DNA of 42,479 nucleotides, from the IMG/VR virus record IMGVR_UViG_2939127364_000002, one strand, 5' to 3'. The stretch is from a virus (Duplodnaviria > Heunggongvirae > Uroviricota > Caudoviricetes). Shown here in pieces: positions 16,652 through 41,471 of this stretch. The notes below the pieces were generated by a model. That model was not told where the DNA came from. It ran no database searches and worked only from the letters and a program-made list of their open reading frames with translations. Position 1 is the first letter of the stretch. The number at the start of each line of letters is the position of its first letter. Both the position numbers and the translations under genes were made by a program.

Positions 16652-17170
16652 ATGAATCATCAATTGGCTAATCTCGATTTCCGGGACATGGTGGTTGTTT
16701 CTGGTGATCGCGTGATCACAACCTCCCGCAAGGTAGCAGCTTACTTCGACAAGCAGCATCACCACATCATTCAGAAAATCGAAAAGCTAGACTGTTCGGA
16801 TGAATTTCTAACCAGCAACTTTTCGCGGGTTACCTATGAACACAAGGGTAATCAGTATGTTGAATATGAAATTTCCAAAGACGGCGCGATGTACATCATC
16901 ATGTCGTTTACCGGCAAAAAAGCTGCCGCCATCAAAGAGGCGTTTATCAAAGCATTTAATTGGATGCGTGACAGGCTGATGGAGATGGCTCACTCATACC
17001 AAAGAGAGCACAACGAGTTAATGCTGGAGTTCATGAAGGAAAAGGATGTTGCCAGTATGTCAGGACGCTTGCTGAACCGCTGGGGCAGGATCAAAAAACC
17101 GCAACTCATAGCAAGAATCGAAAGGCTTGAGCAGCAGGCGCAAATATCGATCCCCGGACTGCCAAAGTGA
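16652..17170 (+). CDS. Rha-family phage regulatory protein
   Basis: ...DFRDMVVVSGDRVITTSRKVAAYFDKQHHHIIQKIEKL... Rha-like; start placed at ATG 16652. Confidence 0.65.
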   Translation: MNHQLANLDFRDMVVVSGDRVITTSRKVAAYFDKQHHHIIQKIEKLDCSDEFLTSNFSRVTYEHKGNQYVEYEISKDGAMYIIMSFTGKKAAAIKEAFIKAFNWMRDRLMEMAHSYQREHNELMLEFMKEKDVASMSGRLLNRWGRIKKPQLIARIERLEQQAQISIPGLPK

Positions 17171-17583
17171 CCATTCCAAAGCCCATCTACTGGTGGGCTT
17201 GATAATGAAACCGTGATTTACATCCCTCACAATCCAGGTATGTAAAAGCTGGATCATGCGAGAACGGATTTAACTAAATCTGTGCGCCACCAGTTAACGG
17301 CAGTACCACGAAACAACCCAAGCCAGTAAGTGGGGAAATAACACTGGCAGCCACTGAAAGATGAACCTCCTGCCTTATGGCAAAAAAGATTCTTTGTGGT
17401 GGCGGACTGATGGAAAGACATCGGTTATTGCAGAGGCCATTCAATGAGTGGTCTCGACAATGGCTTATACCCTACACGGGATAACTTAACTGATATCCCT
17501 TTTAACGGATAAACGGAGCCAATAATGGCAGAGAATGTCGGCATTATGGCAGTGAAATTTGGATAAATCGGAGATTAGTACAT

Positions 17584-17934
17584 ATGCCGCCACGAACCCC
17601 AAAAGCCTGCCGTGTTCGCGGTTGCCGCCATACCACAACTGACCCGTCAGGCTATTGCGAAAGCCACAAAAGTGAAGGCTGGAAGCAATACAAGCCAGGA
17701 CAATCCCGTCATCAGCGCGGTTATGGTTCGAAGTGGGACAGTATCCGCGCGGGTGTCCTGAAGCGTGACAAAGGCCTGTGTCAGTTATGTCTGCGTGCTG
17801 GTGTGGTGCGTGAGGCGAAAACCGTTGACCACATCATCCCTAAAGCGCATGGCGGCACTGATGCAGACTGCAATCTGCAGAGCCTGTGCTGGCCGTGTCA
17901 TAAGGCGAAGACGGCCCGTGAACGGCTAAAGTGA
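17584..17934 (+). CDS. HNH endonuclease, packaging-associated
   Basis: Cys-rich N-terminus and ...VDHIIPKAHGGTDADCNLQSLCWPCHKAKT... HNH motif; immediately upstream of the terminase genes. Confidence 0.85.
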   Translation: MPPRTPKACRVRGCRHTTTDPSGYCESHKSEGWKQYKPGQSRHQRGYGSKWDSIRAGVLKRDKGLCQLCLRAGVVREAKTVDHIIPKAHGGTDADCNLQSLCWPCHKAKTARERLK

Positions 17935-17958
17935 TAATAATTCTCAACTGCATGAGGG

Positions 17959-18009
17959 GAGGGGCGGGTCAAATCCCTGCAGCCTGACATCTTCCGGACT
18001 GCCCGCCCC
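17959..18009. other. Candidate cos region: G/C-rich inverted repeat
   Basis: GGGGCGGG (17961..17968) and CCCGCCCC (18002..18009) between the HNH gene and the terminase small subunit. Confidence 0.3.
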
Positions 18010-18059
18010 ATCGTTTTTTTATACCCGCGAAAAATGAAATTTAACCAGGAGTGCCGCAT

Positions 18060-18554
18060 ATGGCTGGAACGGCGGGGCGTTCCGGGCGTCGCCCCAAGCC
18101 AACGGCGCGCAAGGCGCTGGCCGGAAACCCCGGCAAGCGAGCCCTGAACAAAGATGAACCTGTTTTTACGCCCATCAAAGGTGTTGAGCCACCGGAGTGG
18201 TTCGCTGAAGAAGATCTCCCTCTCGCTACAATCATGTGGCAACTGACAACTAAAGAACTCTGCGGTCAGGGCCTGCTGTGCGTGACTGACCTCGCGGTGC
18301 TTGAGCGGTGGTGCGTGGCCTATGAGTTCTGGCGACGTGCCGTGAAAAATATTGCCAGACAGGGCAACACCATCACCGGTGCAATGGGCGGCATGGTCAA
18401 AAATCCGGAGCTGACCGCCAAGAAAGAACAGGAGTCCGAGATGAGCAGCACGGGGGCAATGCTCGGACTCGACCCCAGCAGCCGCCAGCGTCTGATTGGC
18501 CTGGCGGGGAAGAAGAAAGCCACTAACCCGTTTCTGAAAATCATCGAATCATGA
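18060..18554 (+). CDS. Terminase small subunit (P27-like)
   Basis: [34 protein letters not shown]... typical P27-family N-terminus; AGGAG RBS; ATGA overlap with the large subunit. Confidence 0.8.
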
Positions 18555-20284
18555 GCCGGAAATCTTACCCCAACGTAAATGCTGCCAATCAGTATGCCCG
18601 TGATGTCGTGCGCGGAAAGATTGTGGCCTGCCAGTTTGTGATTCAGGCCTGCCAGCGCCATCTTGATGACCTGATGGAGGAAAAAAGTAAGTCGTTTCGT
18701 TACCGCTTCGACAAGGACCTGGCTGAACGGGCCGCGAAATTTATTCAGCTGTTGCCGCACACCAAGGGTGAGTGGGCATTTAAACGGATGCCCATCACGC
18801 TGGAGCCGTGGCAGCTCTTTGTGATCTGCTGTGCGTTTGGCTGGGTCAATAAAGGTACCCGGCTGCGCCGCTTCCGGGAGGTGTATACCGAAATCCCCCG
18901 TAAGAACGGCAAATCGGCAATCTCTGCCGGTGTCGCCCTGTATTGTTTTGCCTGTGATAACGAGTTTGGCGCGGAAGTGTATTCCGGTGCCACGACAGAG
19001 AAACAGGCGTGGGAAGTCTTTCGCCCGGCGCGACTGATGTGTAAACGCACGCCCATGCTGACGGAAGCGTTCGGGATTGAGGTTAACGCCTCAAACATGA
19101 ACCGTCCGGAGGATGGCGCGCGGTTTGAACCGCTGATCGGTAACCCCGGTGATGGTTCATCACCCCACTGTGCGGTGGTGGATGAATATCACGAGCATGC
19201 CACCGATGCACTTTACACCACGATGCTTACCGGGATGGGGGCGCGACGTCAGCCACTGATGTGGGCCATCACCACCGCCGGGTACAACATTGAGGGGCCG
19301 TGCTACGACAAACGGCGGGAAGTCATCGAGATGCTCAACGGCTCGGTGCCTAACGATGAACTGTTCGGGATCATCTATACCGTTGATGAAGGTGACGACT
19401 GGACCGACCCGCAGGTGCTGGAAAAAGCCAATCCAAATATTGGCGTGTCGGTTTATCGCGAATTTTTGTTAAGTCAGCAGCAGCGTGCGAAAAATAACGC
19501 CCGTCTGGCAAACGTCTTTAAAACAAAACACCTCAATATCTGGGTGTCGGCGCGTTCGGCGTATTTCAACCTGGTGAGCTGGCAGAGCTGCGAGGATAAA
19601 TCACTGACCCTTGAGCAGTTCGAGGGGCAGCCGTGCATTCTGGCCTTTGACCTGGCGCGTAAGCTGGATATGAACAGTATGGCGCGACTTTATACCCGCG
19701 AGATTGACGGTAAAACGCATTACTACAGTGTGGCTCCGCGCTTCTGGGTACCGTATGACACGGTGTACAGCGTCGAGAAAAATGAAGATCGCCGGACAGC
19801 CGAGCGCTTTCAGAAATGGGTGGAAATGGGCGTTCTGACCGTTACCGATGGTGCGGAGGTGGATTATCGCTACATCCTCGAAGAGGCCAAAGCGGCGAAC
19901 AAAATCAGCCCGGTCAGCGAGTCACCCATCGACCCCTTCGGGGCGACCGGGTTGTCACATGACCTTGCTGATGAAGACCTGAACCCCGTCACCATCATTC
20001 AGAACTACACCAACATGTCCGACCCGATGAAAGAGCTGGAAGCGGCAATTGAATCGGGGCGCTTTCATCATGATGGCAATCCCATCATGACCTGGTGTAT
20101 CGGCAACGTGGTCGGAAAAACCATTCCGGGTAACGATGATGTGGTGAAACCTGTCAAAGAGCAGGCGGAAAACAAAATTGACGGTGCAGTTGCGCTGATT
20201 ATGGCGGTTGGCAGAGCCATGCTGTACGAGAAAGAAGACACGCTGTCTGACCACATTGAGTCCTATGGGATCCGCTCGCTTTAA
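18551..20284 (+). CDS. Terminase large subunit
   Basis: 577-aa ORF directly after the small subunit with typical terminase length and ATPase-like central region. Confidence 0.85.
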
Positions 20285-40077: not shown

Positions 40078-41235
40078 CTATGACACCTTCTCATCAAGCC
40101 AATCCGCCCACCACTGCATCATTTCTCTGCGCTTATCGAGATACTGAGCATGGTTGTAAATTCCACGTACAGATCCGCCGTTGGCATGTGCCAGTTGCAC
40201 TTCAATGGCGTCGGCAGGCCATTCGTGCTCGTTCATAATCGTGCTGAATTCATGCCTGAATCCGTGACCGCTTTCCAGACCTTCATAGCCGATTTGTTTG
40301 ATCACAAGCAATACCGCGTTCTCGCAGATTGGCTTCTTCTTATCGTTGCGCCCGGCAAAAACAAACTCTGAGACTGGTTTGGTGATTGAGCTTAGCGTAG
40401 TGAGAAGTTCAACCACCTGGTCTGACATCGGGACCACATGAATTTTGCGTCCCTTCATCACACTGGCGTCGATGGTGATAATCCTGTTTTCAAAATCGAC
40501 GTTCTTCCATAGCATGGAACGAAGCTCTTTCGTTCTTAGGGCTGTATAACGTAAAACTTTTGTCGCAATGAGCGATACGATACTTCCTGAAAATGTTGCC
40601 AGTGCTTTGTTGAATGCAGGGATCTGGTCTGCTGGAAGGAACGGGAAGTTCTTCTTGCGGTATCCCTTCATGGCGTCAGCAAGGTCAGGTGCCGGGTTAT
40701 ATTTAGCCCTACCAGTGACAATAGCGTAACGGAAAACCTCGCCGCATCTTCTGCGGGCTTTGTTGGCTCGCTCCATTGCACCGCGATCTTCAAATCTGCG
40801 GATTACTTCCAGCAGTTGCATCGGCTCAATATCCTGAATTTCAAGGCCGCCGATGATGGGTAAAATGTCGTCATCAAACATTTTTGCAAGTTCATTTGCA
40901 TAGCCTACTGACCAGACTTGCTTCTTGTGCTCGTACCATTCCTTGTAAATGGCGCTAAAGGAATTGTTGTTAGACGAAGTCTTTTTCGCTTTTACCGGAT
41001 CGATACCAACCGAGATGTCTTTCCTCGCGGTCCATGCTTTATCCCTTGCCTCCTGCAAAGTCATAAGCGGATATTTTCCGACGGTCAGGATTTTCTCCTT
41101 ACCGTCAATCTTGTAGCGAAGCTGCCATACCTTTTTCCCGGATACAGGAACATAAAGGTACAGGCCATTACCATCGAGAAGGCGGTATGGTTTTTCTTTC
41201 GGCTTTGCTGCTTCAATCTGCTTAACGGTGAGCAT
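40078..41235 (-). CDS. intS: Tyrosine integrase, IntS-like
   Basis: MLTVKQIEAAKPKEKPYRLLDGNGLYLYV... recognised as the CPS-53/KplE1 integrase; start placed at ATG 41235 rather than track start 41271; adjacent to argW. Confidence 0.9.
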   Translation of the reverse strand: MLTVKQIEAAKPKEKPYRLLDGNGLYLYVPVSGKKVWQLRYKIDGKEKILTVGKYPLMTLQEARDKAWTARKDISVGIDPVKAKKTSSNNNSFSAIYKEWYEHKKQVWSVGYANELAKMFDDDILPIIGGLEIQDIEPMQLLEVIRRFEDRGAMERANKARRRCGEVFRYAIVTGRAKYNPAPDLADAMKGYRKKNFPFLPADQIPAFNKALATFSGSIVSLIATKVLRYTALRTKELRSMLWKNVDFENRIITIDASVMKGRKIHVVPMSDQVVELLTTLSSITKPVSEFVFAGRNDKKKPICENAVLLVIKQIGYEGLESGHGFRHEFSTIMNEHEWPADAIEVQLAHANGGSVRGIYNHAQYLDKRREMMQWWADWLDEKVS

Positions 41236-41281
41236 GGGTAAAAATCCGGTGGGTAAAATTATTTTATCCACTTTTTACCCG
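41236..41281. promoter_or_regulatory. Cluster of GGGTAAAA / TTTTACCC 8-mers upstream of intS (candidate recombination-protein binding sites)
   Basis: GGGTAAAA at 41236..41243 and 41251..41258, inverted TTTTACCC at 41273..41280. Confidence 0.35.
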
Positions 41282-41396
41282 TCATGGAGTGCGGCTGTCA
41301 ACGATCTGACGCGAACCATGACGAACCGTGAATATACGGAAGGCTTGATATTCAGGGGATTTTGCGGACTGGTACGGATGGGAGCGAACTGATAAA

Positions 41397-41471
41397 TGGT
41401 GTCCCCTGCAGGAATCGAACCTGCAATTAGCCCTTAGGAGGGGCTCGTTATATCCATTTAACTAAGAGGAC
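41397..41471 (-). tRNA. argW: tRNA-Arg (anticodon CCU)
   Basis: 75-nt cloverleaf GTCCTCTTAGTTAAATGGATATAACGAGCCCCTCCTAAGGGCTAATTGCAGGTTCGATTCCTGCAGGGGACACCA with anticodon CCT and encoded CCA. Confidence 0.9.
41411..41426. repeat. att core copy within the argW T-arm
   Basis: Exact 16-bp match to 221..236. Confidence 0.6.

Follow-up and report, generated by a model that had tools for sequence, protein, structure and literature searches.

The region between an HNH endonuclease gene and the gene of the terminase small subunit (terS) is very probably the cos site of a lambdoid prophage whose packaging module is of the HK97 type and SfV/SfI-like. It lies in a stretch of viral DNA of 42,479 nucleotides, which we refer to as the window. 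Judging from its sequence, the site belongs to the known HK97/P27-type cos family, members of which are already mapped in SfI, phiP27, HK97, and phi644-2. A first-pass annotation had proposed a candidate cos in this gap, and that proposal is borne out by the mapped decamer of phage SfI, the cos annotation of phiP27, the ends of other relatives, and the flanking genes.

The cos region fills the 125-nt gap between the HNH stop codon (17934) and the terS ATG (18060). It heads the operon for terL, portal, protease, and capsid, as is characteristic of HK97/P27-type cos sites. The complete gene order is HNH, terS, terL, portal, S78 protease, and HK97-fold capsid, with full-length ORFs and strong Pfam matches. 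With its PF05119-type TerS, this arrangement also supports the earlier suggestion that an HNH-assisted terminase of the HK97 type cuts here.

In a megablast search against phage genomes, positions 17584-18700 showed 95-99% identity to the Shigella phages SfI, SfII, SfIV, and SfV and to several E. coli/Salmonella phages; in homologous records the HNH gene is annotated as either an HNH or a homing endonuclease. At the protein level, TerS is 98-100% identical to its counterparts in SfV, SfI, and SfIV. The similarity to HK97 is uneven. The HNH protein matches HK97 gp74 (43% identity over 42 aa, E = 2e-9, BLASTP), TerL matches gp2 (26% identity, E = 5e-30), and the portal protein matches the HK97 portal (E = 2e-58), whereas BLASTP detected no similarity between TerS and HK97 gp1, and gp1 has no Pfam match, PF05119 included.

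Some features of the surrounding DNA deserve mention in their own right. The terS stop and the terL start overlap (ATGA) at 18551-18554, which suggests translational coupling of both terminase subunits. Upstream of the HNH gene, positions 17300-17534 are 98-99% identical to HK620, Sf101, and other E. coli/Salmonella phages, in which they correspond to a DUF2560 or hypothetical gene. The neighbouring HNH-terS region matches SfV-like phages instead, placing a second module boundary at about 17535-17583. The window as a whole is a prophage element and carries ORFs sized like the lambda tape-measure and J genes. ARAGORN predicted a single tRNA gene, a minus-strand tRNA-Arg with anticodon CCT (41397-41471). 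Next to it, on the same strand, is an integrase-sized ORF of 397 aa (40078-41271), and positions 40078-41471 look like the putative integrase/attachment end of the prophage.

Table 1. Features of the packaging region in window coordinates; signed offsets are counted from the predicted top-strand cut.
Feature	Sequence	Position	Strand	Remarks
HNH endonuclease gene		17584..17934	+	Pfam PF01844, E = 5e-15; packaging-module accessory nuclease, counterpart of HK97 gp74
G-box	GGGGAGGGGCGGG	17956..17968	+	-54 to -42; includes left arm of the repeat (17961-17968)
TCAAATC box	TCAAATC	17969..17975	+	-41 to -35
Variable spacer		17976..17995	+	Least conserved stretch in alignment A2; mosaic junction near 17990
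GGAC	GGAC	17996..17999	+	-14 to -11; adjoins the cohesive end on its 5' side
Cohesive-end sequence (cosN equivalent)	5'-TGCCCGCCCC-3'	18000..18009	+	Matches the mapped SfI decamer; holds right arm of the repeat (18002-18009)
Candidate TerS recognition site (cosB equivalent)	TTTTTATACCCGCGAAAAATGAAATTTAA	18016..18044	+	+7 to +35; from conservation and HK97 analogy
terS, terminase small subunit gene, P27 family		18060..18554	+	Pfam PF05119, E = 2e-21
terL, terminase large subunit gene (ATPase + nuclease)		18551..20284	+	Pfam PF03354 and PF20441

Headful (pac) packaging would give permuted, terminally redundant virion ends; for relatives of this element, unique ends have been reported, namely for SfI (PMC3636060) and in the paper on SfIV (PMC3851460). 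According to the latter, the cos site is the same in SfI, SfII, SfV, and SfIV. The termini of SfI virion DNA were sequenced directly, the primers being placed in the HNH gene and in terS. Run-off reads from both ends lacked the same 10 nt that the prophage contains, 5'-TGCCCGCCCC-3', and the authors concluded that packaging is of the cos type (PMC3636060). In the window, positions 18000-18009 are identical to this missing decamer, which comprises the right arm of the inverted repeat and the two bases preceding it.

Sequence records of other relatives mark the same place. The SfI GenBank record ends with TGCCCGCCCC, and its first base is equivalent to 18010. The phiP27 record carries an annotated 10-nt cos-site feature, CGCCCGCCCC, at the homologous position. 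The record of the Edwardsiella phage EPP-1 ends in ...CTGCCCGCCTC, that of HK97 in ...TGACCGCCGCCAAA, and that of the Burkholderia phage phi644-2 ends in ...GGGACCGCCCGCTTC and restarts with GTCAAATTTTCACGCCCGCG. When aligned, the record ends of SfI, HK97, phi644-2, and EPP-1 and the phiP27 cos annotation share one column, and the cohesive-end sequence of the window aligns with them. The SfV record (U82619.2 / NC_003444.1) differs from the marks of these other relatives: its position 1 corresponds to window position 17993, 17 nt upstream of the SfI-mapped end (start TCCGGACTGCCCGCCCC..., end ...CCTGACGTCT). This indicates that the break in the SfV record is not the physical genome end.

The polarity of the overhang is stated explicitly only for HK97 and phi644-2. 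In phi644-2, the virion DNA has 10-base 3' extensions, the right one being 5'-CGCCCGCTTC-3' (PMC2920897), which occupies the same aligned columns as window positions 18000-18009. In HK97 the overhangs are 10 nt long and likewise 3', and TerL cuts cos with stimulation by the HNH protein gp74 (PMC9410871; the discussion of that paper is inconsistent, giving '12-nt' once and '10-nt' elsewhere). For SfI, 3' polarity is suggested by the run-off reads, since the lack of the decamer at both ends implies recessed 5' ends. By homology, the top-strand nick of the window would fall at 18009/18010, and the 10-nt 3' overhang of the relatives would place the bottom-strand nick at 17999/18000. The GGAC motif immediately precedes the latter. 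Its A at 17998 is invariant and its C at 17999 is at least 90% conserved among 77 relatives (alignment A2, see below), and a [G/T]AC[C/T]GC motif starts at -13 in all seven reference phages that we compared after aligning them on their ends or cos features.

These comparisons suggest a sequence of events, in which we infer, for this element, the nick positions, the 3' polarity, the TerS site, and any role of the G-box. TerS would bind the conserved block just downstream of the cut, at approximately 18016-18044, and position TerL, which would be helped by the HNH protein encoded immediately upstream. TerL and HNH would then introduce the two nicks, 10 nt apart, leaving 10-nt 3' cohesive ends, with 5'-TGCCCGCCCC-3' as the extension on the HNH (right) side. 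Packaging would proceed rightwards from terS and end at the next cos in the concatemer. The right arm of the repeat would thereby contribute 8 of the 10 overhang bases. The left arm is part of the separately conserved G-box/TCAAATC element, which lies on the upstream side, 36-54 bp from the top-strand cut, at the end that would be packaged last.

The HNH, terS, terL, portal, protease, and capsid ORFs are all full length, and both the cohesive end and the downstream block are preserved exactly as in SfI and SfV, which are viable phages. It is therefore unlikely that the site is a relic in a defective prophage and no longer cut. What keeps this reading in consideration is that the window is a prophage, with a tRNA-Arg gene and an integrase-sized ORF at one end, that many E. 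coli prophages are cryptic, and that the same cos region is found in 1102 of 5426 complete E. coli genomes.

To describe the conservation of the cos region we used two sets of loci. The first comprised 80 IMG/VR loci whose TerS is 99-100% identical to that of the window; a scan with this single protein gave no more distant copies, so that the set served to reveal natural variants of the left arm and not deep conservation. The second comprised 80 loci from contigs of one genome per species, found with a TerS alignment and ranging from 99% down to 49% TerS identity; they come from Enterobacterales, Pseudomonas, Burkholderia, and Comamonas. Regions of the second set were anchored on CCCGCG, which we chose ourselves, and these eight or nine columns owe part of their conservation to that choice. 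A CCGCG[A/T]AA motif was present upstream of terS in 79 of the 80 loci, which had been selected by TerS protein homology. Alignment A2 was made with MAFFT from 77 distinct relatives, and a gap-free anchored alignment was also counted in Python.

In the 77 diverse relatives, three boxes stand at fixed spacing in a nearly gap-free alignment: the G-box followed by TCAAAT, the GGAC with the C-rich decamer (-14 to -1), and the CCCGCGAAA block. In the second set, the first box takes the form GGGGAGGGG(C/G)(G/A)GG, then T(C)AAA(T), spanning -54 to -36. The G at 17963 is invariant and positions 17962, 17964, and 17967 are at least 90% conserved among the 77 relatives; in the adjoining box the A at 17972 is invariant and the A at 17973 is at least 90% conserved (A2). 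The G-run and TCAAATC occupy identical aligned columns in the window, SfI, SfV, phiP27, and HK97. In the HK97 lineage the G-box is conserved as a poly-G run of variable length, and GATCAAATCTTC is nearly invariant in almost all of 52 variants.

Among the HK97-lineage loci (L175-L254), cos regions that are almost the same in other respects have poly-G runs of about G7 to G11, while GATCAAATCTTC and its distance to the cut are constant in nearly all of these loci. This means either that changes in length are tolerated at the left edge of the G-box or that the assemblies contain homopolymer errors. With regard to other functions of this segment, the G-box of the window has only three G-runs when considered as a G-quadruplex, and TCAAATC is, by eye, a poor match to the IHF consensus WATCAANNNNTTR.

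The block at +7 to +35 is the most conserved stretch among relatives with 49-99% TerS identity. Its consensus is TTTTTxAxxCCCGCGAAAAATGAAATTTAA, and in the second set it reads TTTTTA.ACCCGCGAAA(A/T)AT.AAATTTAA. The minimal TerS site of HK97 extends from +15 to +29; in it, the C:G pair at +21 and the A-tract beside this pair are both essential (PMC11331095). The +7 to +35 block is probably the TerS site of this family as well, by analogy with HK97; the transfer of the HK97 model is an analogy because the TerS of the window has no detectable similarity to gp1. As far as conservation can indicate, then, the window has the candidate TerS block downstream of the cut that characterises HK97/P27-type cos sites.

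Three loci from Phytopseudomonas and Pseudomonas (L143-L145) deviate from the common pattern. The distance between their GACCGCCCG motif and the CCCGCG anchor is greater by about 9 nt, and the C-rich end has given way to a G6 run (GACGGGGGGA); the distance from the G-box to the anchor is as usual. In these elements the position of the cut may differ.

The first set is informative about variation at a finer scale. To the right of TTCCGGAC (at about 17990) its 80 loci are essentially invariant, whereas the left side varies by haplotype. Several haplotypes of the HNH 3' end, the G-box, and the spacer occur among these loci despite TerS proteins that are 99-100% identical. Such a pattern suggests that the HNH/lysis module and the head module meet at a recombination boundary in the cos region.

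The feature that had drawn attention to this gap is the inverted repeat itself. The earlier description of its two arms, of their separation by about 33 bp, and of their location between HNH and terS was correct, but the start given for it, 17959, is 2 nt to the left of the arm. The left arm, GGGGCGGG, occupies 17961-17968 and the right arm, CCCGCCCC, 18002-18009; they are 100% complementary and separated by exactly 33 nt. This exact repeat pattern occurs once in the window and in none of 100 shuffles. Perfect 8-bp inverted repeats with spacers of 3-50 nt are, on the other hand, common: the window contains 65 of them, or approximately 1.5 per kb, and about 0.19 would be expected in a gap the size of the cos region. 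Among the 65, only this repeat has arms made entirely of G and C. The repeat exceeds chance only modestly, and the weight of the site comes from homology to mapped cos sites rather than from repeat statistics.

We considered whether the repeat could nevertheless be a functional recognition element, with a symmetric terminase/HNH dimer on both arms or a cruciform or hairpin that marks the cut. The arms match perfectly (8/8) in the window, SfI, SfV, and phiP27, and most members of the family have both a G-rich box upstream and a C-rich cut site. The pairing between the arms is not maintained, however. In the 77 relatives, 67.6% of positions pair in the register of the repeat, against 69.9% in column shuffles (498 of 500 shuffles were equal or higher) and 56-72% in slid registers. 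The central pair is unpaired in 58 of these 77 sequences. In a separate count on the anchored alignment, all 8 pairs were kept in only 5 of 78 sequences. Even where TerS is 99-100% identical, the left arm takes the form of GGGGGAGG, GGGACGGG, GGGGCGAG, or others opposite an unchanged CCCGCCCC, and in the HK97 lineage (52 variants) poly-G stands opposite CGCCGCCAAA, so that no repeat exists. Covariation between the arms was found neither in the 77 relatives of A2 nor in the anchored alignment. The predicted fold of 17945-18030 is no more stable than that of shuffled sequences, either as RNA (z = +0.19) or as DNA (z = -0.19).

On this evidence we regard recognition of the repeat as improbable. 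Its symmetry is not the conserved or recognised feature, and a conserved hairpin or symmetric inverted repeat with pairing above controls was not found among the relatives. The arms belong instead to two separately conserved boxes, the left to the G-box and the right to the C-rich cut site. The lack of covariation and the disruption of the repeat in natural variants indicate that its perfect complementarity is incidental, the C-rich cut site having a G-rich box opposite it, and does not reflect selection for a hairpin or a symmetric site.

A Rho-independent terminator that ends the lysis/HNH transcription unit is the least credible explanation: a run of seven T (18014-18020) does begin 4 nt after the G/C-rich stem, but the loop would be 33 nt long, the T-run is set 4 nt off the stem, the RNA fold is no better than shuffles, the arms do not covary, and a terminator scan reported nothing at the repeat. 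The stable stem, short loop, and adjacent U-tract of such terminators are thus not found here. Moreover, the T-run is kept whether or not the arms pair, as part of the downstream block conserved from E. coli to Burkholderia. Termination at this place would also conflict with late transcription in lambdoid phages, which has to continue across cos to reach the head genes. As for other RNA elements, GGGTCAAATCCC resembles a tRNA T-arm, but ARAGORN and Rfam searches were negative for a tRNA-like or known RNA at this place, the latter returning no match at E <= 1 within 17000-19000.

The G-box and TCAAATC together span 17956-17975 (-54 to -35). They are conserved at fixed spacing in the P27-type cos sites of Enterobacterales, Pseudomonas, Burkholderia, and Comamonas, and they are conserved in HK97 as well. 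The papers that we consulted assign no role to them, and those on HK97 describe just the TerS site (+15 to +29). The upstream half of cos is shared with HK97, whose TerS is unrelated in sequence and whose TerL, portal, and HNH proteins are homologous to those of the window; this suggests that TerL, HNH, or portal reads the upstream half and TerS the downstream half. We tentatively propose, as a possibility that we hold with considerable doubt, that G-box/TCAAATC might form a third, so far uncharacterised subsite of cos, recognised not by TerS but by TerL, HNH, or the portal. Such a subsite would be required for the second nick or for termination and would be a positional analogue of lambda cosQ.

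Such a role for the G-box and TCAAATC in HK97-type packaging would be the one point that is not already known. The position of cos has practical value too, as it would establish where the genome physically ends, and in which direction it is packaged, for a prophage type that about 20% of complete E. coli genomes carry. Annotators can also take from it the point at which such genomes should be linearised; the SfV reference record, for instance, is broken 17 nt from the mapped end. In a survey of 5426 complete E. coli genomes, the segment 17935-18060 (126 nt) was present at a coverage of at least 80% in 1099 and gave matches in 1102. A genome may hold up to 4 copies of it, and 13 copies are located on plasmids.

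Compared with known systems, the site has the same general layout as lambda cos (cosQ-cosN-cosB), in which an element close to the end, a site for nicking, and a region bound by TerS beside the terS gene are likewise combined. The lambda cosQ lies on the last-packaged side of the cut, and G-box/TCAAATC is in a like position. Lambda, though, has 12-nt 5' overhangs and a Nu1/gpA terminase that works with R-sites and IHF and has no HNH partner. The site in the window is not of the lambda type: its TerS belongs to PF05119, an HNH gene is adjacent, and HK97 and phi644-2 have 10-nt 3' extensions. The lambda overhang is given as 10 nt in one of the papers cited above (PMC9410871).

HK97 is like the window in that its cos lies between HNH and terS, in that a G-run with ATCAAATC and GAC[C/T]GCC occupy identical aligned columns, and in that ACCCG and then an A/T tract follow the cut. 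It differs in its overhang, CGCCGCCAAA, in arms that form no inverted repeat, and in the position of ACCCG, which lies 4 bp further from the cut (+18 vs +14). The upstream half of its cos (G-box, TCAAATC, GAC, and C-rich end) is thus shared at identical spacing, whereas the downstream half differs.

In the Burkholderia phages phi644-2, phiE125, and phi1026b, which have the 10-base 3' extensions described above, the downstream block, TTTTCACGCCCGCGAAAAATGAAATTTAA, is almost identical to that of the window, TerS is of the P27 family, and an HNH gene is located upstream. They differ in having a beta-proteobacterial host, a TerS that is about 55% identical, and a G-box followed by GTGAAAAAGTC rather than GTCAAATCCC. 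Burkholderia members (phi644-2, L090 511-551; L149 from B. pseudomultivorans) also have a perfect 12-bp hairpin, GCCCGCCCGGCG-(4 nt)-CGCCGGGCGGGG, overlapping the 5' part of the G-box, which enterobacterial members do not have.

In phiP27, the Stx2e phage that is the prototype of P27 TerS, the cos-site CGCCCGCCCC lies between the HNH-like gene L34 and L35 (terS), as in the window, and the G-box GGGGAGGGGCGGGTCAAATCCCTG and ACCCGCGAAA have the same spacing. Its first overhang base is C instead of T, the spacer and the distal A/T block differ, and DNA identity is about 79%.

The closest correspondence is with SfI, SfV, SfII, and SfIV, which share with the window the same TGCCCGCCCC, G-box, TCAAATC, GGAC, and downstream block and the same HNH-terS-terL order. 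The window differs by four substitutions in the variable spacer and by an A at +1, where SfI has a G, and it is apparently integrated beside tRNA-Arg (CCT) and not at thrW.
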